Shown here in pieces: positions 1-11,744 of a stretch of DNA of 12,412 nt (positions are counted from its first letter, which is position 1; every line of letters starts with the position of its first letter). The translations under genes and the position numbers were made by a program. The DNA is from a virus. Lineage: Duplodnaviria; Heunggongvirae; Uroviricota; Caudoviricetes. Below the pieces are notes generated by a model. That model was not told the origin of the DNA and did not search any database. It was given only the letters and a program-made list of their open reading frames with translations. The stretch lies in the IMG/VR virus record IMGVR_UViG_3300017766_004476, positions 1 through 12,412 of that record; one strand, written 5' to 3'.

Positions 1-164
1 AGTGTATAATCCTTTTCGGTGTTATTAATCGGATGCTCTTTACCTACCTTTCGAGTACAGCTATCTACATACTGAATCTGATCATTACCTTTATAATGTT
101 CTTTCAATCTATCAATTAATGTAGTCTTACCTGTACTATGTGAACCTGTGAAAGCAATTAACAT
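1..164 (-). CDS. Partial P-loop NTPase / nucleotide-kinase-like protein (AAA_28/NadR- or dNMP-kinase-like); runs off the left edge
   Basis: Not in the ORF track. Manual translation from ATG at 164 gives MLIAFTGSHSTGKTTLIDRLKEHYKGNDQIQYVDSCTRKVGKEHPINNTEKDYT, open to base 1. N-terminal hydrophobic strand plus Walker A GSHSTGKTT. Confidence 0.75.
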   Translation of the reverse strand, partial: MLIAFTGSHSTGKTTLIDRLKEHYKGNDQIQYVDSCTRKVGKEHPINNTEKDYT

Positions 165-170
165 ATAAGA

Positions 171-198
171 ATAATATATGAATTTTACATATTATCAA
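171..198 (-). promoter_or_regulatory. Sigma70-like promoter for the kinase-like gene
   Basis: TTGATA (198-193), 16-nt spacer, TATTAT (176-171), then 6 nt to the ATG at 164 (leaderless geometry). AT-rich background lowers certainty. Confidence 0.5.
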
Positions 199-203
199 CA
201 GGA

Positions 204-211
204 TATAAATA
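204..211 (+). promoter_or_regulatory. T4-type late promoter (gp55 consensus)
   Basis: Exact TATAAATA, 5 nt upstream of the ATG at 217. Confidence 0.7.
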
Positions 212-216
212 ATAAT

Positions 217-1029
217 ATGGTTCACTTTAAACAATTTCTGCATGAGAATGCTCTTCCTGAGAGTCACAAATATCTCTCTGGTAAAGTACTTCACACATTA
301 AGAGATAATGAAGACTTAGTAAAGGTAATTCGTTCAGGTCTTAGAGCTGAATCTAATGTGACTCTTGACGGAGGAAAGCCTAATCAATCTCTCGGGTATG
401 GTATTACTTTAGTCTACAATAGAGAAGATGTAGATGCATCACCAAAAGGATATAATGAAAATGATGGTATACTAAATTCCCGAATTAGAAAATTACCTGT
501 TGCTATTTTTATAGAGCAAGAAGAAGTAGACATGATTACCTATAAGACCTTTACAGAAGAAGAGATTGCCCATAAGTTAGAGCAAATGTACCCACAGCTC
601 GAAGCAGAGCGCCTCTTTATTAAAAAACACAGAGAAGAGAACCCACCTCATTTTGTAGTTAAAGAAATGGATGATTACTTTGCTGCAATGCAAGAAGTAA
701 TGAATAAAACAGATATGTCAGTCATTATGACCGGAAAGGGAAAGTATAAGGTGGTTAGAGATAATCCAAACTATAAACCCATCAAGCTTAATTGGTATGG
801 AGAGACTGATAAACTTTCAAAACTTAGAGCAGAGTATGAGCAATGGCATGCGCGGTATGATGAGCTTTTAGATCGTCAGTTACAGGAACCAGGACTAAAA
901 AAAGTGCCTGAGACTAATGAATCTCAGGCAGTTGAATATCTTATAAAGGGTATACCAGAAAATATTCCCGTATATCTCTATGAACTTTCAGAAGATGAAG
1001 AGGTCATCAATATTAGAAAAGTGCGCTAA
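217..1029 (+). CDS. Putative virion head internal protein (270 aa) with a capsid-targeting-like N-terminus; possible ADP-ribosyltransferase fold
   Basis: Start moved from 178 to 217 because a TATAAATA lies just upstream and MVHFKQFLHE aligns with the T4 internal-protein targeting sequence MKTYQEFIAE. VLHT...VIRSGLRA and LGYGITLVY weakly resemble ART motifs. The ORF is well supported; the function is tentative. Confidence 0.65.
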   Translation: MVHFKQFLHENALPESHKYLSGKVLHTLRDNEDLVKVIRSGLRAESNVTLDGGKPNQSLGYGITLVYNREDVDASPKGYNENDGILNSRIRKLPVAIFIEQEEVDMITYKTFTEEEIAHKLEQMYPQLEAERLFIKKHREENPPHFVVKEMDDYFAAMQEVMNKTDMSVIMTGKGKYKVVRDNPNYKPIKLNWYGETDKLSKLRAEYEQWHARYDELLDRQLQEPGLKKVPETNESQAVEYLIKGIPENIPVYLYELSEDEEVINIRKVR

Positions 1030-1556
1030 AGCAGCTTTCTAAGAAGGGTGACCCATATATCAATAGAAAGACCTTTAATATTATTTGTCAAGCTATCTAA
1101 TGTATCTGTAGGTGTAATAGTATAAGGAGCTCTACTCACAATTTCACCGCAATCTACTTCTGCAGTAACTCGATGAATCACCGTACCAGTTGTGGGCAAC
1201 TTTAACTCTAGAGCCTTCTTTTGTGGATTAAAGCCCTTGAGTTCAGGATATTGAACTATATCACCAGGATGCCCATTATAGATCTCATAATCATTACAAA
1301 TTTCCGGTGGTATAATACGGAGATAACCATGTAATGTTACAATAGTATCCTTTCGATCACCAATAGCTTTATAGTAATCACCTACAGATGGCTTTTGAGG
1401 TACCCCTAATAGGATTGTATGCTTTAAAAGCTCTTGATTAATACCTTCAAAGTGATTTCTATTACAGATAACATAGTCAGGATACCTACCTAGTTTCTTT
1501 GATATTTGTTCAAGCTCTGAACCAGTTTGACTAAAGAGCGATATCCATCTTTTCAT
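1026..1556 (-). CDS. dpdN: PurN-like 10-formyl-THF-dependent formyltransferase; by context a DpdN-like dPreQ1 formyltransferase
   Basis: Motifs FSQTGSEL (PurN SGNGSNL loop), LHGYLRII (LAGYMRIL), YNGHPG and HRVTAEVDCG give an intact N94-H96-D135 catalytic triad. Lies two genes downstream of a DpdA-like gene in the same unit. The fold is confident; the dpdN assignment is contextual. Confidence 0.8.
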   Translation of the reverse strand: MKRWISLFSQTGSELEQISKKLGRYPDYVICNRNHFEGINQELLKHTILLGVPQKPSVGDYYKAIGDRKDTIVTLHGYLRIIPPEICNDYEIYNGHPGDIVQYPELKGFNPQKKALELKLPTTGTVIHRVTAEVDCGEIVSRAPYTITPTDTLDSLTNNIKGLSIDIWVTLLRKLL

Positions 1557-1981
1557 TGCGGATCCTTTGATGAATCATATTCATGAGGCCTTATAATATC
1601 TAATAGAGCAGGGTAATCATTAATTCTCTTAGTATGAATAAAAACATTACTGCACACTAATTGATGTTTTTCATCTGTAGAAAATTGAATCTTGATGTAC
1701 GCATCTTCTCTGATTTGAAAGATTGATGTCCACATAAAGCTTCCATTAGATAAAAAGGCACCTTGAGTACCTACTAACATATCCCTTAATGTATCTAAGA
1801 GAGAATACTTACAAGGATATATATGAGGAGTGACTACATTTACCTTATGATTATGCCAAATGTATTTTATAAACTCTTCTACATCTGATGTGGTTGATTC
1901 TTCAAAAAGCCATTTATATCTAGTGAGAAACTCACTAACAATTTCCTGATTAGACTTTTTTGTAAGTTTATTATGAAACAT
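1553..1981 (-). CDS. Hypothetical protein (142 aa) between dpdA-like and dpdN-like genes
   Basis: Tightly coupled on both sides: starts 1 nt after the upstream TAA and ends in an ATGA overlap with the formyltransferase start. No motif recognised. Confidence 0.7.
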   Translation of the reverse strand: MFHNKLTKKSNQEIVSEFLTRYKWLFEESTTSDVEEFIKYIWHNHKVNVVTPHIYPCKYSLLDTLRDMLVGTQGAFLSNGSFMWTSIFQIREDAYIKIQFSTDEKHQLVCSNVFIHTKRINDYPALLDIIRPHEYDSSKDPQ

Positions 1982-1982
1982 A

Positions 1983-2810
1983 TTATTTAATTAGATTTGT
2001 ACGGAAGTATTCCACATTATAATTGATACGCTCCATCTCATCATCAGTTACCTTATGAGTGATCATTTCTGCAAGCATCTGAGAAGGCTTATGCCAGAGA
2101 CCAAACTCTTTATCATATGTATAACCTAAAATACCTGCAACCACTGGATTTGATGTATCACAAGATCTAATATTATTAATATCATGTGTTGTATAGAATT
2201 TAAATTCCTGTGCAAGGCTACAGCCCAACAAATGAATAGGCTTCTTCATATCCCAGATACCTTCAACCATTAACCCAGCAATAAAGCGTTGACGACCAGT
2301 GCACCAAATCTGAAGCTGTTTAGTACGTTCATCAACAACGCGACCCTTATTAAACACCTCGCCAATTTCATTATATGCAGCAAGATCAAAGCTGATTGCA
2401 ATCTGATCAGCCCAATCACACATAAATTTGTAGCATTCAACCATCTCTTCAATAGTTGCACCCTGAACTACACCAATTCGTCTTCCAGGAAGCTTACTAT
2501 ACTCTTTCATCCATGCTGCATAATTATCAATGGTTTCTTGCTTGTCCTGAAGGCTATCAGGAACAATGTAACAAGTAGGTTTAAGTTTATCAACCCACCC
2601 TGCAAAAGCCTGTGCATCAAATGCCTTTTTGAGTTCAAAGATGCTGTTATCAAGTAACACTTCACGATCTACAGCTAATGACTTAGCAAAGAAGTCATAA
2701 TACTCGGGATGCTTATCAAAAAGATGAACTAAGGCATATTCATAGTCATTATAATATCTAGATTCATCGAGGATTGATATAGGTGATTCGTGTGATGTAA
2801 GTATTCGCAT
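1983..2810 (-). CDS. dpdA: TGT-fold guanine transglycosylase, DpdA-like (possibly DpdA3 type)
   Basis: TGT-like motifs in the correct order: LLD54NS (DSG-type catalytic Asp), VPD85, VVQ116G, H193LLG, SCD218TSNP (nucleophilic Asp). At 275 aa it lacks the Cys/His zinc site of tRNA TGTs, as expected for phage DNA-acting paralogs. Confidence 0.8.
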   Translation of the reverse strand: MRILTSHESPISILDESRYYNDYEYALVHLFDKHPEYYDFFAKSLAVDREVLLDNSIFELKKAFDAQAFAGWVDKLKPTCYIVPDSLQDKQETIDNYAAWMKEYSKLPGRRIGVVQGATIEEMVECYKFMCDWADQIAISFDLAAYNEIGEVFNKGRVVDERTKQLQIWCTGRQRFIAGLMVEGIWDMKKPIHLLGCSLAQEFKFYTTHDINNIRSCDTSNPVVAGILGYTYDKEFGLWHKPSQMLAEMITHKVTDDEMERINYNVEYFRTNLIK

Positions 2811-2818
2811 ATAAGTTA

Positions 2819-2847
2819 ATAGTATTAGAGCCTGAGTGAAAATGCAA
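2819..2847 (-). promoter_or_regulatory. Sigma70-like (early) promoter of the dpdA unit
   Basis: TTGCAT (2847-2842), 17-nt spacer, TACTAT (2824-2819), 8 nt before the ATG at 2810. Confidence 0.6.
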
Positions 2848-2853
2848 ATGTTA

Positions 2854-2861
2854 TTTAAATA
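2854..2861 (+). promoter_or_regulatory. T4-type late promoter, one mismatch
   Basis: TTTAAATA, 5 nt before the ATG at 2867 (same spacing as 204-211). It sits in the palindrome TTATTTAAATAA (2851-2862), so the motif is also present on the minus strand. Confidence 0.55.
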
Positions 2862-2866
2862 ATTAT

Positions 2867-3592
2867 ATGGTAGAAACTAATACAGCACTGAAGTCTCTAA
2901 GAAATACGGTAACCAATACATCTAGTACGGTTTATTCGGATGTAAAGAGTATTGTTCTATCGCCTGTTGATACAGTTAAACGAACGGGTGCGCTTATTAA
3001 CGATCTACCCAATCTTCCATTAGTCAACAACATCTCTATTGCAGATCTAAAAAACTTTGTCACAGAACCATCTAAATCAGACTTAACAAAGTTTATCGAG
3101 AAGTCTACAAATCTCTCATTTAGCAGTCTTTCAAAGCAAAATTTATTAAATCAATTCCAGGATGGGCTTGGAAGCCTTCAAAGTATATTAGTAGGTGAAC
3201 TTAGAAACTGTATTGATAGACATTTAAGGAATATCGCGCGCGATATTAAATTTGTAGACATCGCTCTTAACTTTGATAGAATTTTAGGAAGAAAGATTGG
3301 AGAAGTACGCTCGAAGATAAACAATAAGGTGAATTCTGAATATGAGAAGTTATTGTACAACAAACTTAAAATTCAGAGGCGTGCATTAATTCGTCAGAAG
3401 GTAACAGATAGTATTCGTAAAATCTGTCCTGATGCTTCTGCTTCGAGACTCAAGAAGTATCAAACATCTCCTGACTACAGAGAGATTGAAACACAGCGAG
3501 CAGCTTTAAACACTGCACAGACAGTTAATAATCAATTGGTTGCTTCTGTAAATACTCCAGTAAATAATAATACCTGGAAGAACTTAGTATAA
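2867..3592 (+). CDS. Hypothetical protein (241 aa), probably late/structural, coupled to the gp5-like spike gene
   Basis: Long ORF with a late-promoter motif; its stop lies 1 nt before the gp5 ATG. No family recognised. Confidence 0.7.
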   Translation: MVETNTALKSLRNTVTNTSSTVYSDVKSIVLSPVDTVKRTGALINDLPNLPLVNNISIADLKNFVTEPSKSDLTKFIEKSTNLSFSSLSKQNLLNQFQDGLGSLQSILVGELRNCIDRHLRNIARDIKFVDIALNFDRILGRKIGEVRSKINNKVNSEYEKLLYNKLKIQRRALIRQKVTDSIRKICPDASASRLKKYQTSPDYREIETQRAALNTAQTVNNQLVASVNTPVNNNTWKNLV

Positions 3593-3593
3593 C

Positions 3594-5990
3594 ATGTCAG
3601 ATATCAATCATAGCAATTTACATGAATCGTCAAAGGGTAGATCATCAAAACAGAAATATTTTGGTCATTACCTCGGTATAGTAGTTCAAAATAACGATCC
3701 CGAAAAACGAGGCAGAGTTAAAGTCTTTGTACCTCATGTATCTCCTACTGTATATAAAAATTGGCTTTCAGTCAATACTAAGAAGAAATTTAAGTTTATA
3801 GGTAATAATATCGACTCTGACTTAACGCTTATTATTGATGAGCTTAGAGATATACTTCCTTGGTCAGAATGTGCAGCACCTTTAGCTGGTGAATCTTCTT
3901 CAGGTAGATATAATGCATATACAAAGCTAGCAACGACATCAGATGGAAATATTTCATCACTTTCGTTCCCATCTTCTGCATCACCTACAAAATACAGTCT
4001 TAATAAAGAAAATATATCCGAAAAGCCAGGAAGGCTTTATGAAGTCAATACGAGTAGAGTTAATGATGCATTTAATGGAACAGACATAGAGTCATCAAGA
4101 ATTCTTAACAAGTATTCTCATAACTATATCCCATCTACTTATTCAAACACATCTAAAGGATCATTCTCAATCCCCCGGGTAGGTTCTCACCTGTGGTGCT
4201 TCTTTACTAATGGTGATCCAATGTTTCCAATATATTTCGCAGTATCATACAATCAAGAAGATTGGAAGGGTATATATGAGCTTAACTCTGAAGGTACTCC
4301 CGACTACCCATCTGATTATGAGAACAGTAGCGTTAAGGAAACTCCTAACTATGGACCTGAAAATGATAAGTATCGAAATAAATGGGTAATGTCTCAGAAG
4401 GGCGGTGTAATAGAAATCGTTAATACTGACAATAGAGAAGTATTAAGGTTTACTCATTATAGCGGGTCATTTATCGAGTTCAACAATAACACTGCAATAG
4501 AGTTTAATTCTAAGAATAAACAGACATTAACTCAAGGAGATGAATTTAAAACGATAAGGGGTAATAAGGCTCTTTATGTTGATGGTATATTGGATCAAAC
4601 TATCAGAGGAGATGTGTATCGGACTGTAGGTTATAAAAAGTATGATAAGTTTTCGAGTTGGCGTGAAATAATGAGAGAGATCGCCGATGCAAAACAACTC
4701 TTTGATATTCGCCGTGCTGATTATGTATTAAATGAAATATATCAAGATGTATCACCCCTTCAAGTAAAATCACCAGGAGGGTTAATAGGTCACGCTCCTT
4801 GTCCATTATGCTCAGCAGAAGGAAGACAGAAGTATTGGAAAAATAATCACACTCTCATATCGTATAGTAATGTTAACCGCTATGACTCACCTCCACCTAA
4901 TGGCTCTACTCAACCTGCAGGTACCTTTACTACCATTGTAGATATGGTTGATGATTCTGCGAGCTTTAGTAATGTTAGTTATACTGGAGGTAGTTTACCA
5001 GAATTTATCCAAGGACCTACCGCACCTCGAAGCTTTCTCGGGGAAGTATGTCCGGTATGCTTAGGTACTGGTAAATCTCCTTCATCTCAAAATGGTAACT
5101 TTACCAATGAAAATAAAGACTCAGAAGTAATCATAAAACTTCGTGATAAAATTAAGCAATTAACTGAACTTGAAAGAGAGCTCGGTATTGGAGGGTCTGA
5201 AATTGTAACCATAGCTAAGCATCGTGTAGAGAACATTGGTTTATTGATGAATAACTTTCCTGCTATTAGGGTAGATTACATCGGTAAAGCTGCACCTGGT
5301 GAAGTATATATTCTTCCTGAAGGTGTAGTAAATGCATATGAACCTGCACCAGTTATAGAATTAGTACACGTTGATGACCTACCTGGAGGTAATGCGTCAT
5401 TAAATGTTGCAAACAAATATAATGTCACAGTAGGTTCGGGAGGTATTAATATTAAGACTACTGGTGTAGTTAACTTTGGTGGTGTAGTTACTAATATTGC
5501 AGGTAAGCAGGTCAACATCGGAAGTGAGCTTGAAACAAATATTTCATCTAAGCGTGTTACCATAGATGCAGATTACATCACTCTTAAGAATCGTAAATTT
5601 AAACAAGTGGTTGTTGAAGGTAACCTCGGAGTAACTCAAAATGTTATTATCGGAGGAGGTCTCCATGTTGAAGGTGAGTTATCAGTCAACCATATCACTG
5701 CCCCAGTAGAAATTCAAGAGACAGAAGAAGTAATCCTCCAGGGATGGATAGATGATGAGAATGTCCAGAAGATGCAATCAACTGGACCAGGAGGACCTAT
5801 TATCTTAATAGACCCTAATGACCCTGTATTGGTACACTTTGCGCCGCACTCACATCAATTTAGAAATATACCTCTTACATTGACTACATCTAACGTAGCA
5901 TTAAGAAAGATTGCAGCTGTTAATCAGAATGCATCTAAAGCTCCATCTATGCCAGTTCGACACGAGAAGAAGGTAGATGTTAGTTTATAA
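3594..5990 (+). CDS. gp5: Baseplate hub / central tail spike, gp5/VgrG-like (798 aa)
   Basis: N-terminal OB-fold signatures YLGIVVQNNDPEKRGRVKVFVP, LPWSECAAP and IPRVGSHLWCFFTNGDPMFPIYF. Gly/Val/Asn/Thr-rich beta-helix-like C-terminal half ending in an HSH motif. No lysozyme domain seen. Confidence 0.85.
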   Translation: MSDINHSNLHESSKGRSSKQKYFGHYLGIVVQNNDPEKRGRVKVFVPHVSPTVYKNWLSVNTKKKFKFIGNNIDSDLTLIIDELRDILPWSECAAPLAGESSSGRYNAYTKLATTSDGNISSLSFPSSASPTKYSLNKENISEKPGRLYEVNTSRVNDAFNGTDIESSRILNKYSHNYIPSTYSNTSKGSFSIPRVGSHLWCFFTNGDPMFPIYFAVSYNQEDWKGIYELNSEGTPDYPSDYENSSVKETPNYGPENDKYRNKWVMSQKGGVIEIVNTDNREVLRFTHYSGSFIEFNNNTAIEFNSKNKQTLTQGDEFKTIRGNKALYVDGILDQTIRGDVYRTVGYKKYDKFSSWREIMREIADAKQLFDIRRADYVLNEIYQDVSPLQVKSPGGLIGHAPCPLCSAEGRQKYWKNNHTLISYSNVNRYDSPPPNGSTQPAGTFTTIVDMVDDSASFSNVSYTGGSLPEFIQGPTAPRSFLGEVCPVCLGTGKSPSSQNGNFTNENKDSEVIIKLRDKIKQLTELERELGIGGSEIVTIAKHRVENIGLLMNNFPAIRVDYIGKAAPGEVYILPEGVVNAYEPAPVIELVHVDDLPGGNASLNVANKYNVTVGSGGINIKTTGVVNFGGVVTNIAGKQVNIGSELETNISSKRVTIDADYITLKNRKFKQVVVEGNLGVTQNVIIGGGLHVEGELSVNHITAPVEIQETEEVILQGWIDDENVQKMQSTGPGGPIILIDPNDPVLVHFAPHSHQFRNIPLTLTTSNVALRKIAAVNQNASKAPSMPVRHEKKVDVSL

Positions 5991-6416
5991 GCTTATCAAG
6001 TCACTTAATTTGTGAACCTTAACACCTCTGCGCTTTAAAAACTCTATAGAAGGTAAACTCGTCTCATATGAATCGAGATAGACTACTCTACTGATTTTAG
6101 CACCTACTAGTAATTTACTACATGGTAGACAAGGTAAGAGAGTTATATAGCAGGTAGCACCTTCACTTGATTGAGTACTACAAGCCAATTTTAAGATAGC
6201 ATTTTCTTCTGCATGATAGACTTCTGGTTTAGTCTTACCCTGTTCATCTTCACAGCAATTATCGTCACCAGAGGGAGTACCATTATAACCATCGCTGATT
6301 ATTTGAGTACCCTTTACTATAAAGCAACCTACTTTACGGCGCTTTGAGGGAGACAGCTCAGCCCATTGCTGAGCCATCTCTATGTATTTCTTATCAAGTT
6401 CTAATTGATTTGCCAT
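5985..6416 (-). CDS. cd: dCMP deaminase
   Basis: HAEENAI and PCLPC zinc-deaminase motifs, plus KVGC...DGYNGTPSG. Confidence 0.95.
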   Translation of the reverse strand: MANQLELDKKYIEMAQQWAELSPSKRRKVGCFIVKGTQIISDGYNGTPSGDDNCCEDEQGKTKPEVYHAEENAILKLACSTQSSEGATCYITLLPCLPCSKLLVGAKISRVVYLDSYETSLPSIEFLKRRGVKVHKLSDLISL

Positions 6417-6418
6417 AA

Positions 6419-8533
6419 TTATAATTCACATTTACCACCAGCGCATGCTGCAGACTCCATGATTTTTGTTTCATCGGTACTCTCTTCGAGCTGTGTAAAG
6501 TCAACAGAAGTATACTTTGCTATAAGCTGGTTCCACTTAACATTATCTTCTTCTGTGGTAACTTCTTCACGCGGAGCTTGTACATACATCTTGTCACCCA
6601 TTTTTGAGATGAATGATACTGCGCAGAATAATGCTCGGTGATCATATACATATTGAGATACATTATCCCATTCATGGGTATCTACAATTATAGTACAACT
6701 GACATTATGCTCGAGACCTCTATGAGTATTATTAACAGTCTGAGAACCTGGTTTAACCCAATTCTCTTGGATGAGTTTAATATATTCGAGGTGCTTTAGT
6801 GCATCAAGATCTTTATTAACGATTGCATGTTCTGGTGCACAGAGCGGCCAGCTAATTACATCATCTGATTTATTAGCGCTCCAAACACTCTCTTCACACA
6901 TGTGATCATTCTGGATGTAGAAGAACTGATACGGATTATCAAGTTTATTACACTGAACCCTTCTGAAATACTTACGAGCATGATGTGGATGTGCACCCGA
7001 TCCAGACCCAAATATTAAACTCGTAGTACCTTCAGGCTTAACAGTTGTAATACGTGCAGCAGGATTAATTCCTAATTTTTGAGCCCATTCTTTATTCACT
7101 TCAATAGAATACTTAGCACCGCTTTGAAGTATCTCAGGCTTGAGAAGAATTTGAGGGTTATCAAATACTCCACAGATAGATACCCCTAAGAGAGCTTCCT
7201 CATTGGTTAACTGCTTACCGGTGTTACTTAAATAATTAAAGTTGGTGTAACCTGCTTGCAATGTACCAATAATAGTTGCATACTTAACACAATCATTAAA
7301 GATTTCCCGTGATACAATCTTTCTTCCGTTCATAGAAGTAAGATTACAGAATTGAACTCCGCAAATACCATCTGCTGTTATAGGTCTAAAACTAATCTCG
7401 AAACACGGATTAAACAATTGATCATCATAATCTGCCCAAACAAAGCCTGGCTCACCCCATTGCTTTGTCATCTCGAATACTGCTTTAAACTCTTCATATG
7501 TCGTCTTATTACGAAGTAAGAGAACACTGTTATTGCTCCGAGCTCTCTGAGGTTCAATTCTGTGCCAGCTAATTGTCTTAGTCTCTCTAAGAGCGCTATA
7601 TTCGTATTCTGAAAGAACTACATCATGCTTCTTTCCATCTACATATACAAATCCATGCCAATTAGAGCCCTCTTGTTCAAAGCGGAAGTAACGGGTAACC
7701 TTTAAATTAGATTTAGCAGACATCATCTCTAAATCATCCTTATCAAAGACTGTACTACATGCACTTCTTCTAATACCACCCGATAAGACTGCATCTGCAC
7801 AGTGCATTAAGATATCATATGCATTGATGGGGTGCATCCTACTTTGATGCTTGTTTTCAATAATGTGGTCGAGTAATGCTTTAATCTTAATATGAGCATT
7901 CTTGAGTCCTTCGTACCCCGGAGCCTTACCTCCTGCAGTCTTTAAAGGTGCACCCTTTTTACGAATCTTACTGTAGTCAAATATAACCTTACGTCCGGTA
8001 TATGCTGTATTCTTAAAGTAGCAGTTCAATAATGCTTCAATAGAATCAGACCATCCTTCAAGAGAGTCATCTACAGTATAAGTAATAACAGTACCACTCT
8101 TATCTTTAGGCCCTACTAAGTCGGGTAACCGATTAATGAATCTCTTTGTTAATCCAAACCCAACACCACACCCTGACATGAGCATGAAGAATGATTCTGA
8201 AAATGATCGAATGCTATCTATGTGACGCACTGCACAGTTAAACATGCGTGCAGGATTAACTTCAATTGCCTTACCTCCAAATTGGAGAGATCTCATTGAG
8301 GGTACGATAAATTTCCGCTTTACTAATTCAAATGCAGTACATACTTCCTTGACATCATAGGGAGTTAATTGTTCCTTATAATTCTTAAGATGCATGTCTC
8401 TAACTCTATCAACACACTCTTCCCATGTTTCTCTGCGCTTTAACTTATTATTGTACTTTGCATACTTGCTAACAAAGATAAAATCCGACAATTCATCCAA
8501 CATTTCTTCCCCTGTAAACGCCTTTTTATTCAT
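6419..8533 (-). CDS. nrdJ: Class II (adenosylcobalamin-dependent) monomeric ribonucleotide reductase (704 aa)
   Basis: RRETWEECVDRV, PSMRSLQFGG, FNCA, GCGVGF, GGIRRSA, NPCFEI, QFCNL, TTVKPEGTTSL, HNVSCT and C-terminal CAGGKC redox pair. Start moved from 8578 to MNKK at 8533, downstream of a TATAAATA. Confidence 0.93.
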   Translation of the reverse strand: MNKKAFTGEEMLDELSDFIFVSKYAKYNNKLKRRETWEECVDRVRDMHLKNYKEQLTPYDVKEVCTAFELVKRKFIVPSMRSLQFGGKAIEVNPARMFNCAVRHIDSIRSFSESFFMLMSGCGVGFGLTKRFINRLPDLVGPKDKSGTVITYTVDDSLEGWSDSIEALLNCYFKNTAYTGRKVIFDYSKIRKKGAPLKTAGGKAPGYEGLKNAHIKIKALLDHIIENKHQSRMHPINAYDILMHCADAVLSGGIRRSACSTVFDKDDLEMMSAKSNLKVTRYFRFEQEGSNWHGFVYVDGKKHDVVLSEYEYSALRETKTISWHRIEPQRARSNNSVLLLRNKTTYEEFKAVFEMTKQWGEPGFVWADYDDQLFNPCFEISFRPITADGICGVQFCNLTSMNGRKIVSREIFNDCVKYATIIGTLQAGYTNFNYLSNTGKQLTNEEALLGVSICGVFDNPQILLKPEILQSGAKYSIEVNKEWAQKLGINPAARITTVKPEGTTSLIFGSGSGAHPHHARKYFRRVQCNKLDNPYQFFYIQNDHMCEESVWSANKSDDVISWPLCAPEHAIVNKDLDALKHLEYIKLIQENWVKPGSQTVNNTHRGLEHNVSCTIIVDTHEWDNVSQYVYDHRALFCAVSFISKMGDKMYVQAPREEVTTEEDNVKWNQLIAKYTSVDFTQLEESTDETKIMESAACAGGKCEL

Positions 8534-8550
8534 ATTCTTTTTTGTGAAAT

Positions 8551-8558
8551 TATTTATA
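8551..8558 (-). promoter_or_regulatory. T4-type late promoter upstream of nrdJ
   Basis: Exact TATAAATA, 17 nt upstream of the ATG at 8533. Confidence 0.6.
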
Positions 8559-8599
8559 TGATAACCCCGCAATAACACTAGTGGTTGAATTAAGAAAAA

Positions 8600-10439: not shown

Positions 10440-10712
10440 ATGAAACGTATTTTTAATATAGTTCTCTTACTCTCAATGTGTTTTACACTAGGTTGCAAGA
10501 CTTGTCAACGGAGACATTTAGATAATGTCACTCCGATGCCCCCTGCACCTACCCAATTGTTCATATTTTCAAAGCCTCCTATTGTTGATAAAATTGTAAC
10601 TGTAGATGGAACAAACTATGTAGTCACTACAGAGTATATCAACAACACTATCCTTTACAAATATTACTTTGAAAAGGTAGAAGAGTGGAGAAAAAAGAAT
10701 CAGATTCCTTAA
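10440..10712 (+). CDS. Putative lipoprotein (90 aa), o-spanin-like
   Basis: Start moved from 10380 to 10440. MKR-IFNIVLLLSMCFTLG-C is a lipoprotein-type signal with Cys19, followed by a Pro-rich linker TPMPPAPT. Confidence 0.6.
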   Translation: MKRIFNIVLLLSMCFTLGCKTCQRRHLDNVTPMPPAPTQLFIFSKPPIVDKIVTVDGTNYVVTTEYINNTILYKYYFEKVEEWRKKNQIP

Positions 10713-11227
10713 ACTTCCCAGGGAAATTCAAGCCATACATCTTTGTGATATGTGACATTGTAGAAAAACGGGACGGTAAATTTTGCTCCTTTAAATTCCT
10801 TGTAATAGGGAGCAACAATAAAGATGTTTATCTTTCTAAGAAGTTTAAATTCTTCCTCTAATAAATTAACAACAGCATTCATTGTTTCTCCTGTGTCAAT
10901 TAATTCATCTACAATAATAATATTGTTCCCAGGTAGACTTATTAAATCGGAGGTAATATTATCTAGATGTTGCTTTATATTTCTCGGGTAATACTCAATT
11001 CCTTTTTGTTCTTCATTATCATAGCTCTTTACACCGATAGAATAGACATTTTTGATCTCTGCCTTATTTGCGAGGATTGTTGCAGGTACTAAACCCCCGC
11101 GACTCAATGCGATTATTGCCTTTGTATTAGAAAAAATGTTAGCTTGATATAATCGATGATAAATCTCTCTTACATGCTGATGCAGATTGTCCCATGTTAT
11201 CTTTTGCTTTTCTAGTTGAGTTGTCAT
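10709..11227 (-). CDS. gpt: Gpt-like purine phosphoribosyltransferase (type I PRTase)
   Basis: IIALSRGGLVPA, VKSYD, PRPP loop IIVDELIDTGET and terminal WLEFPWE closely parallel E. coli Gpt (SRGGLVP, IDDLVDTGGT, WIEQPWD). Confidence 0.85.
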   Translation of the reverse strand: MTTQLEKQKITWDNLHQHVREIYHRLYQANIFSNTKAIIALSRGGLVPATILANKAEIKNVYSIGVKSYDNEEQKGIEYYPRNIKQHLDNITSDLISLPGNNIIIVDELIDTGETMNAVVNLLEEEFKLLRKINIFIVAPYYKEFKGAKFTVPFFYNVTYHKDVWLEFPWEV

Positions 11228-11744
11228 AATTATGAAATGTTAAAATGTAATTATTTGTTGTAAATACTTCTGTTATTATTTTGTAAACCTTATCCCAATC
11301 ACCACCTGCATTGCGGCACCCCATATACTCCGGAAATGCAATCATTGGCAATACGACCCAATTTTTTGTATGCTCTTCAATATCATTTCGGATATTATTG
11401 AGACCGGTTCTCACTGCATAATAATCTAAATGAGCGCGGGTCCGCCCATACATATATTGACCATAGAGATTATAAACAACAATAGTCTTATTATTACTAC
11501 CGTTGACAAATGCTTTACTGAAGTCTCCTAATTTAGTCTCATCACCGTAATTAGTTTTCTTATCAGCCGCATATATCTGAGGCCATTGCTGCCGGAGCGA
11601 AAGAGCAACCCCAGCACCCATTGTATGGAAGCAATTACAGCAATGAATGATGAAGTCGCTGGGTGTGTCTAATATACTAGTATTGAGATGTAAGCACTTA
11701 TCACCTATCACCTTTATTCCAGTTATTGCAGTCAAATCTTGCAT
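11139..11744 (-). CDS. Macrodomain protein (ADP-ribose binding/hydrolase; phage Tk.4/Poa1p/DarG-like)
   Basis: IIHCCNCFHTMGAGVA (loop 1), NLYGQ and PEYMGCRNAGGDW (loop 2). Start uncertain (ATG 11744 or GTG 11711); the last ~29 codons overlap the PRTase gene. Confidence 0.85.
   Translation of the reverse strand: MQDLTAITGIKVIGDKCLHLNTSILDTPSDFIIHCCNCFHTMGAGVALSLRQQWPQIYAADKKTNYGDETKLGDFSKAFVNGSNNKTIVVYNLYGQYMYGRTRAHLDYYAVRTGLNNIRNDIEEHTKNWVVLPMIAFPEYMGCRNAGGDWDKVYKIITEVFTTNNYILTFHNYDNSTRKAKDNMGQSASACKRDLSSIISS

Follow-up and report, generated by a model that had tools for sequence, protein, structure and literature searches.

The DpdA3 subfamily of DNA guanine transglycosylases was defined on three phage lineages, represented by Cellulophaga phage phiST (CGPG_00065), Campylobacter phage CP220 (gp056) and Flavobacterium phage immuto_2-6A (gp206) (PMC10516641). 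In the CP220 group, the pathway stops at 7-carboxy-7-deazaguanine (CDG), the base is 7-amido-7-deazaguanine (ADG), and its deoxynucleoside dADG replaces all of the deoxyguanosine (dG), and in the DNA of immuto_2-6A the formylated preQ1 deoxynucleoside, fdPreQ1, was found in place of dG by liquid chromatography-tandem mass spectrometry (PMC10516641). The latter phage encodes YP_010114479.1, a protein named DpdN and classified in group 1 as a preQ1/dPreQ1 formyltransferase (PMC10516641). Here we describe a related locus in IMGVR_UViG_3300017766_004476, the genome fragment of an uncultured tailed phage. The analysed stretch of 12,412 nucleotides (hereafter the window) opens this 112,741-bp IMG/VR contig, for which CheckV estimates a completeness of ~65%. 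At 2810-1026, its minus strand carries, in transcription order, a DpdA3-type transglycosylase, an ORFan (an open reading frame (ORF) without relatives) and a DpdN-type formyltransferase, which probably form the part of a phage 7-deazaguanine pathway that inserts the base into DNA and tailors it, with fdPreQ1 as the product. An earlier reading made from the sequence alone (the sequence-only reading) had proposed DNA hypermodification by a DpdA and a formyltransferase at this locus. Its core held up, in that the enzyme families, their folds, the conserved catalytic residues, the gene order and the presence of QueF were shown, while its statements about the promoter, the host and the rarity of the chemistry did not. 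There is little in the window that is new in kind: the DpdA3/DpdN system and its product have been known since 2023.

The three genes are as tightly coupled as they had appeared. The transglycosylase P0001 (275 aa, 2810..1983), the ORFan P0002 (142 aa, 1981..1553) and the formyltransferase P0003 (176 aa, 1556..1026) all lie on the minus strand. A single nucleotide separates the stop codon of P0001 from the start codon (ATG) of P0002, which in turn overlaps P0003 by ATGA. The assignment to a T4-like phage was likewise confirmed, by a gp5-like hub protein in the window and by gp23 and gp21 in a sibling contig, IMGVR_UViG_3300017747_003762 (L003), which is 99.8% identical across positions 1-7473 of the window and extends beyond the window start. 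The two contigs differ at 16 positions, none of them within P0002, and 13 of the differences are synonymous, which indicates purifying selection. Samples that contain the phage include IMG 3300017747 and the run SRR10520205. No near-identical cultured phage was found when the whole window was compared with phage genomes by megablast.

P0001 is assigned to the DpdA3 family by its similarity to the founder proteins rather than by a formal DpdA1/2/3/4 tree. It shares 47% identity (46.7% over 270 aa) with the DpdA of immuto_2-6A, which is annotated as a DNA guanine transglycosylase. A tblastn search of 50,697 phage records retrieved only records of immuto (4) and of the Campylobacter CP220 group (14, ~41% identity). 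At a relaxed threshold, phiST and its kin were also matched (24% identity, E 1e-3), and three weaker matches (E 0.01-0.8) belonged to unclassified phages. All of the cultured-phage matches at E 1e-3 or better are thus members of the founder lineages of DpdA3 (immuto, the CP220 group and phiST), and phages with DpdA1, DpdA2 or DpdA4 were absent from the cultured-phage matches, even at the relaxed threshold.

In profile searches against Pfam and NCBIfam, P0001 matched no family, the tRNA-guanine transglycosylase (TGT) model PF01702 included, and its match in PHROG was phrog_19058, a group of unknown function (7e-50). An AlphaFold2 model built from 25 relatives reached a predicted local distance difference test score (pLDDT) of 92.8, and in a Foldseek search of the PDB its top 50 chains were all TGTs (E ~1e-7, probability 1.00). 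A PDB sequence-profile search with the DpdA3 alignment returned no TGT and only chance matches to complement C8, so that, judging from the model, the relation of P0001 to TGTs is detectable at the fold level only. Across the 25 relatives, D54 (in LDNSIFEL), D85, Q116-G117, G196 and D218 (in DTSNP) are invariant. The segments DNSIFE, VVQG, HLLG and DTSNP resemble DSGGFQ, VQGG, LMGVG and FDCV of Tgt, which we take to be its substrate-binding and nucleophile motifs. By this motif resemblance, as opposed to a residue-level superposition, D54, D85 and D218 would include the equivalents of D102 and D280 of Tgt.

Since the nearest solved folds are those of tRNA-modifying enzymes, P0001 might instead act on host or phage tRNAs in a queuosine-type modification, leaving the DNA untouched. 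We regard this as very improbable. Besides the missing Pfam TGT match, the CxCxxC...H zinc-site motif was not found in the P0001 sequence, and the nearest relatives occur in phages whose DNA, not tRNA, has been demonstrated to be fully modified (PMC10516641).

P0003 can be placed in the DpdN family from its alignment with YP_010114479.1, which covers 173 of its 176 residues at 44% identity (E 1e-49). It matches Formyl_trans_N of Pfam (2.2e-11), and the top 21 PDB matches of its AlphaFold2 model (pLDDT 96.8) are PurN/glycinamide ribonucleotide (GAR) transformylases, with template modelling (TM) scores of ~0.8. In agreement with the sequence-only reading, the N-H-D triad is intact: N94, H96 and D135 do not vary among 37 relatives from databases, and in 29 more taken from the loci they are conserved to at least 95%. 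The N-terminal loop with S9, G12 and E14 is also invariant in the relatives.

PurN is the best named family for P0003, its PHROG match is the cyanophage PurN group, and the PurN genes of cyanophages match its C-terminal half at 33-37% identity. The gene could therefore be an ordinary PurN auxiliary metabolic gene serving purine synthesis, as in cyanophages, in which case the DNA would contain dPreQ1 at most. This explanation seems quite unlikely. The match to the PurN model TIGR00639 (5.8e-13) scores 48.8 bits against an equivalog cut-off of 150.1, and only residues 67-173 align; PurN profiles thus cover the C-terminal half, whereas DpdN aligns over the full length. Moreover, the gene is encoded with DpdA3 in one operon, with QueF two genes further on in the sibling contig, and the same arrangement recurs in 29 related loci. 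In all 29 of these modules, the position of DpdN is between DpdA3 and a kinase gene, its presence tracks the DpdA3 tree, and a predicted DpdA3::DpdN fusion exists (see below).

The window begins within this kinase gene. Positions 164..3 (minus strand) encode its first 54 codons, truncated by the contig start, and these match at 100% residues 1-54 of a 189-aa P-loop nucleoside/nucleotide kinase of the AAA_28 family (9.3e-18) at L003:7310-7879. Directly after the kinase, L003 encodes a 308-aa two-domain QueF (QueF_N and QueF), followed by gp23 and gp21. The QueF motif, the catalytic cysteine and the HFHEE motif are all intact. The gene that the sequence-only reading had singled out for a search is hence present, just beyond the window start. 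The structural neighbours of the kinase are deoxynucleoside and thymidylate kinases. Sequence comparison identifies it as orthologous to kinases of CP220 (34% identity, 3e-28) and immuto (33%, 2e-18) that also adjoin DpdA3. The paper describing the DpdA3 phages does not mention the kinase (PMC10516641), and its recurrence next to DpdA3 in three distantly related lineages of phages is, on these alignments, new here, as are the gene fusions predicted on single contigs (see below).

The module is widespread. The DpdA3-like family comprises 2757 protein clusters at 90% identity and at least 539 IMG/VR loci, and for DpdN-like proteins there are 324 clusters at 50% identity (E 1e-10 or better). We sampled 79 loci with enough downstream sequence, of which 43 have the order DpdA3-kinase-QueF, 29 have DpdA3-DpdN-kinase-QueF and 7 have DpdA3 alone; the kinase and QueF thus directly follow DpdA3 or DpdN in 72 of the 79. 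With DpdN in 29 of the 79 sampled modules, the chemistry can hardly be called rare, as the sequence-only reading had supposed. In nearly all of the sampled loci, the module stands head to head with a gp5-like baseplate hub gene. At seven loci (L027, L050, L087, L090, L091, L095 and L099), DpdA3 lies by the baseplate hub and no kinase, QueF or DpdN was found within 6 kb, so that the layout of the module differs there.

On the DpdA3 tree, the presence of DpdN requires 4 changes, as compared to ~24 when the states are shuffled. P0001 groups with immuto in a clade in which 23 of 26 members are DpdN-positive (Shimodaira-Hasegawa-like approximate likelihood ratio test, 93), although its branch is long and its exact place unsure. 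No column of the DpdA3 alignment splits the DpdN-positive from the DpdN-negative modules at 80%, which is weakly consistent with a single substrate, preQ1, for both types of DpdA3 and a later formylation. Gene fusions were also predicted. The DpdA3::DpdN fusion P0173 (447 aa) lies at L110:554-1897 on one short metagenomic contig, and of two DpdN::kinase fusions, P0256 and P0260, one has 373 aa and lies at L111:1247-2368, again on a single short contig, and the other has 365 aa. As each confirmed case rests on a single short contig, each fusion might stem from misassembly or a frameshift.

In the reading that we favour, preQ0 would be supplied either by the host or by FolE, QueD, QueE and QueC, whose genes are expected in the third of the genome that is missing, and QueF would convert preQ0 to preQ1. 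DpdA3 would then exchange guanine for the 7-deazaguanine base, and DpdN would move a formyl group from formyl-folate onto the 7-aminomethyl nitrogen to give fdPreQ1; formylation may precede or follow insertion. By analogy with the other DpdA3 phages, fdPreQ1 would replace most or all of the G and block restriction.

Several points weigh against this reading. The activity of DpdN has never been demonstrated biochemically, and its discoverers were unable to reconstitute DpdA3 in E. coli (PMC10516641). The occurrence of fdPreQ1 in the DNA of this uncultured phage is itself a prediction by analogy. Neither Pfam models nor tblastn with the immuto proteins revealed FolE, QueD, QueE or another radical-SAM protein, QueC or QueF on the 112.7-kb contig. 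The sequence-only reading had proposed a search for these precursor genes, and its outcome was mixed: folE, queD, queE and queC are missing from the contig, QueF is found in the sibling, and FolE, QueD and QueC are encoded by each of the five long relatives (105-225 kb, at least 93% complete in two cases). Two of the five have a weak radical-SAM match next to QueD. In four of the five, QueC, QueD and FolE are placed 37-68 kb downstream of DpdA3, and in one relative QueC lies within the replication module, between UvsX and gp41. Because PolB, UvsX, gp41 and gp32 were also not found on the window contig, the replication module must belong to the missing third of the genome, and since this module is the neighbourhood of the precursor genes in the relatives, their absence from the contig is uninformative. 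A search for an extension past the far end of the contig yielded only 2-kb contigs, none of which extended it. The precursor genes are thus likely in this phage by way of its relatives and the missing replication genes. Finally, it is not obvious what the conserved kinase would contribute if the transglycosylation of DNA were purely post-replicative.

The kinase also invites another route to the same product. Before replication, and at the level of free nucleotides, DpdA3 would exchange the base on deoxyguanosine monophosphate (dGMP), DpdN would formylate the aminomethyl group of the 5'-phosphorylated product in the manner of PurN acting on GAR, the kinase would phosphorylate it further, and the polymerase would incorporate the triphosphate, which would explain a replacement of 100%. 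If this were true, complete G replacement would be achieved through nucleotides rather than by remodelling of finished DNA, and a Gpt-like enzyme would recycle the guanine. Several observations suit such a route. The kinase adjoins DpdA3 in three very different lineages and recurs with QueF in nearly every sampled module, it resembles deoxynucleoside and thymidylate kinases in structure, and there are predicted DpdN::kinase and DpdA3::DpdN fusions, which the describing paper does not mention (PMC10516641). The nearest fold of DpdN is PurN, an enzyme that acts on an aminomethyl compound linked to ribose 5-phosphate, and the S9/G12/E14 loop is invariant. A MazG-like pyrophosphatase adjoins DpdA3 in phiST, and an HD-domain protein does so in CP220. 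As weaker evidence, the DpdA3 family is uniformly acidic, with a median isoelectric point of 5.5. On the other hand, all of the characterised TGT and DpdA enzymes use polynucleotides, and the discoverers favour post-replicative insertion (PMC10516641). The fusions may be artefactual, as noted above, and phages commonly encode deoxynucleoside monophosphate kinases for general purposes. Furthermore, no enzyme that could clear deoxyguanosine triphosphate was found on the contig by tblastn with the queries tried, namely the phiST MazG, the CP220 HD protein and the immuto hydrolases. A prediction of the DpdA3-DpdN complex scored 0.01 and carries no information for or against an interaction. Taken together, we give this route only a small chance, and insertion by DpdA3 with tailoring by DpdN remains the reading that we prefer.

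The Gpt-like xanthine/guanine phosphoribosyltransferase is encoded in the window at 10709..11227 (minus strand) and is a possible accessory of the module. Its match to PRK09177 (8.2e-27) is below the cut-off; the Logan gene call assigns it to Pribosyltran, and it is 24% identical (E 1e-7) to immuto gp211, which sits within the 7-deazaguanine cluster of that phage. A Gpt-like gene also lies upstream of the module in the relatives L040, L042, L044, L086, L093 and L017. Under either mechanism, guanine set free when the bases are exchanged might be recycled by this enzyme.

The sequence-only reading had placed a sigma70-like promoter ahead of the unit, and this was not borne out. The 56 nt that separate DpdA3 from the divergently oriented baseplate genes (2811..2866) hold no minus-strand match to the promoter consensus, the best reading there being TTGCAT-17-TACTAT, and the scanned region has 14 promoter-like sites as compared to 17.9 in shuffled sequences. 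No Shine-Dalgarno motif precedes the DpdA3 start. Over the contig, a Shine-Dalgarno core precedes 18 of 198 ORFs (9%), as compared to 7% at random positions, and the leaders are A-rich; elsewhere, the motif precedes 2 of 33 genes (6%) in the Flavobacterium phage and 7 of 11 (64%) in a Campylobacter phage. Upstream of genes, neither TTGACA (1 observed, 4.0 expected) nor the Bacteroidota motif TAnnTTTG (11 observed, 9.7 expected) is enriched. A loose -35/-10 pattern shows mild enrichment (8 observed, 2.0 expected) and the T4-late motif TATAAATA a clear one (9 observed, 1.2 expected). The TTGACA count and a Shine-Dalgarno frequency close to that of the Flavobacterium phage leave the earlier suggestion of a non-Bacteroidota host without support. 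The capsid protein is only ~35% identical to the capsids of T4-like cyanophages. A host among the Bacteroidota, or in another lineage poor in Shine-Dalgarno motifs, is plausible.

Two ORFs of the locus occur, among the 79 sampled modules, only in this phage and its sibling. P0002 found only itself among 5.8 billion proteins, belongs to no Pfam, PHROG or NCBIfam family, and was not found in the 78 related modules. Its codon usage is phage-typical and coding-like, scoring 0.167 in frame and -0.6 or lower in the other frames. Its Atlas model is of low confidence and yields NTF2/SnoaL-like matches only at TM ~0.43. The other is a 283-aa ORFan on the plus strand between DpdN and the kinase (178..1029), which also has coding-like codon usage and gave no usable match in Pfam, PHROG or NCBIfam searches. 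Antisense within it lies a strong terminator-like hairpin with an 11-bp stem and a T run (905..930, minus strand), which is located 96 nt past the stop codon of P0003 and was recognised as a pattern match only, by consensus scan and from the sequence.

Adjoining the baseplate genes, the minus strand at 5985-8578 encodes a 143-aa dCMP deaminase and a class II ribonucleotide reductase of the B12 type (RNR; ~704-719 aa); these are ordinary nucleotide-metabolism genes of phages. A 201-aa protein at 11139-11744 (minus strand) matches the macrodomain of the DarG antitoxin, a DNA ADP-ribosyl glycohydrolase, at E 1.6e-12, far below the cut-off, and is a possible counter-defence against DNA ADP-ribosylation of the DarT type. 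In the sibling contig, L003:8800-9375 (minus strand), directly after QueF, encodes a 2H phosphoesterase or Acb1-like protein (2_5_RNA_ligase2 5.6e-11; Acb1 8.4e-5), possibly a nuclease of cyclic nucleotides directed against the cyclic-oligonucleotide-based anti-phage signalling system (CBASS). In the relative L105 (7900-10967), where QueC is flanked by UvsX and gp41 in the replication module, a glycosyltransferase and a separately encoded class-II glutamine amidotransferase are its neighbours, a pairing that recalls the Gat-QueC fusions of other phages.

Far from being confined to a single Flavobacterium phage, the module is standard across a large and very common clade of uncultured T4-like phages, whether or not it includes the formyltransferase. 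Genomes in which all G is substituted may accordingly be common in environmental viromes, and they may bias both sequencing and methods that rely on restriction. Sister modules with and without DpdN offer a natural comparison for the effect of formylation, and the kinase partner, together with the gene fusions, provides a testable handle on how DpdA3 phages achieve complete replacement.

As compared to bacterial Tgt (PF01702), P0001 has the same (beta/alpha)8 TGT fold but is ~100 residues shorter, has no zinc subdomain, and is missed by both the Pfam model and the PDB sequence profile. P0003 likewise shares the fold and the N-H-D triad of PurN (GAR transformylase), while differing in its score against TIGR00639, in its shorter length and in its constant location within a 7-deazaguanine module.

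Among the DpdA3 phages, phiST, whose DNA contains 2'-deoxy-7-deazaguanosine (dDG), is the founding member of the subfamily, with a DpdA3 homologue that is still recognisable. It is a 79-kb phage that is not T4-like (Cbastvirus), with QueD, QueE, FolE and the MazG-like gene beside DpdA3, and no kinase, QueF or DpdN was found in the stretch of its locus examined. The Campylobacter Firehammerviruses of the CP220 group are closer, with a DpdA3 41% identical to P0001 and the orthologous kinase directly after it. A difference is that no DpdN or QueF stands beside DpdA3 in the ~12.8 kb of the CP220 locus examined, and the genes of CP220 use Shine-Dalgarno motifs.

The closest known system is that of Flavobacterium phage immuto_2-6A, although the surroundings of the unit differ. 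In immuto, FolE, QueD and QueE lie within 4 kb upstream of DpdA3, whereas here the upstream genes are those of the baseplate, the dCMP deaminase and the RNR. Immuto has a family A polymerase, whereas the present phage is of the T4-like type, with a family B polymerase encoded on a related contig (G009). The ORF between DpdA3 and DpdN has 50 aa in immuto and is replaced here by the unrelated 142-aa ORFan, and in this phage the opposite-strand 283-aa ORFan separates DpdN from the kinase. Both phages lack Shine-Dalgarno motifs, and both have a Gpt-like phosphoribosyltransferase nearby. Above all, the two loci share the order DpdA3, small ORF, DpdN, kinase and QueF, with DpdA3 and DpdN proteins that are 47% and 44% identical, respectively.

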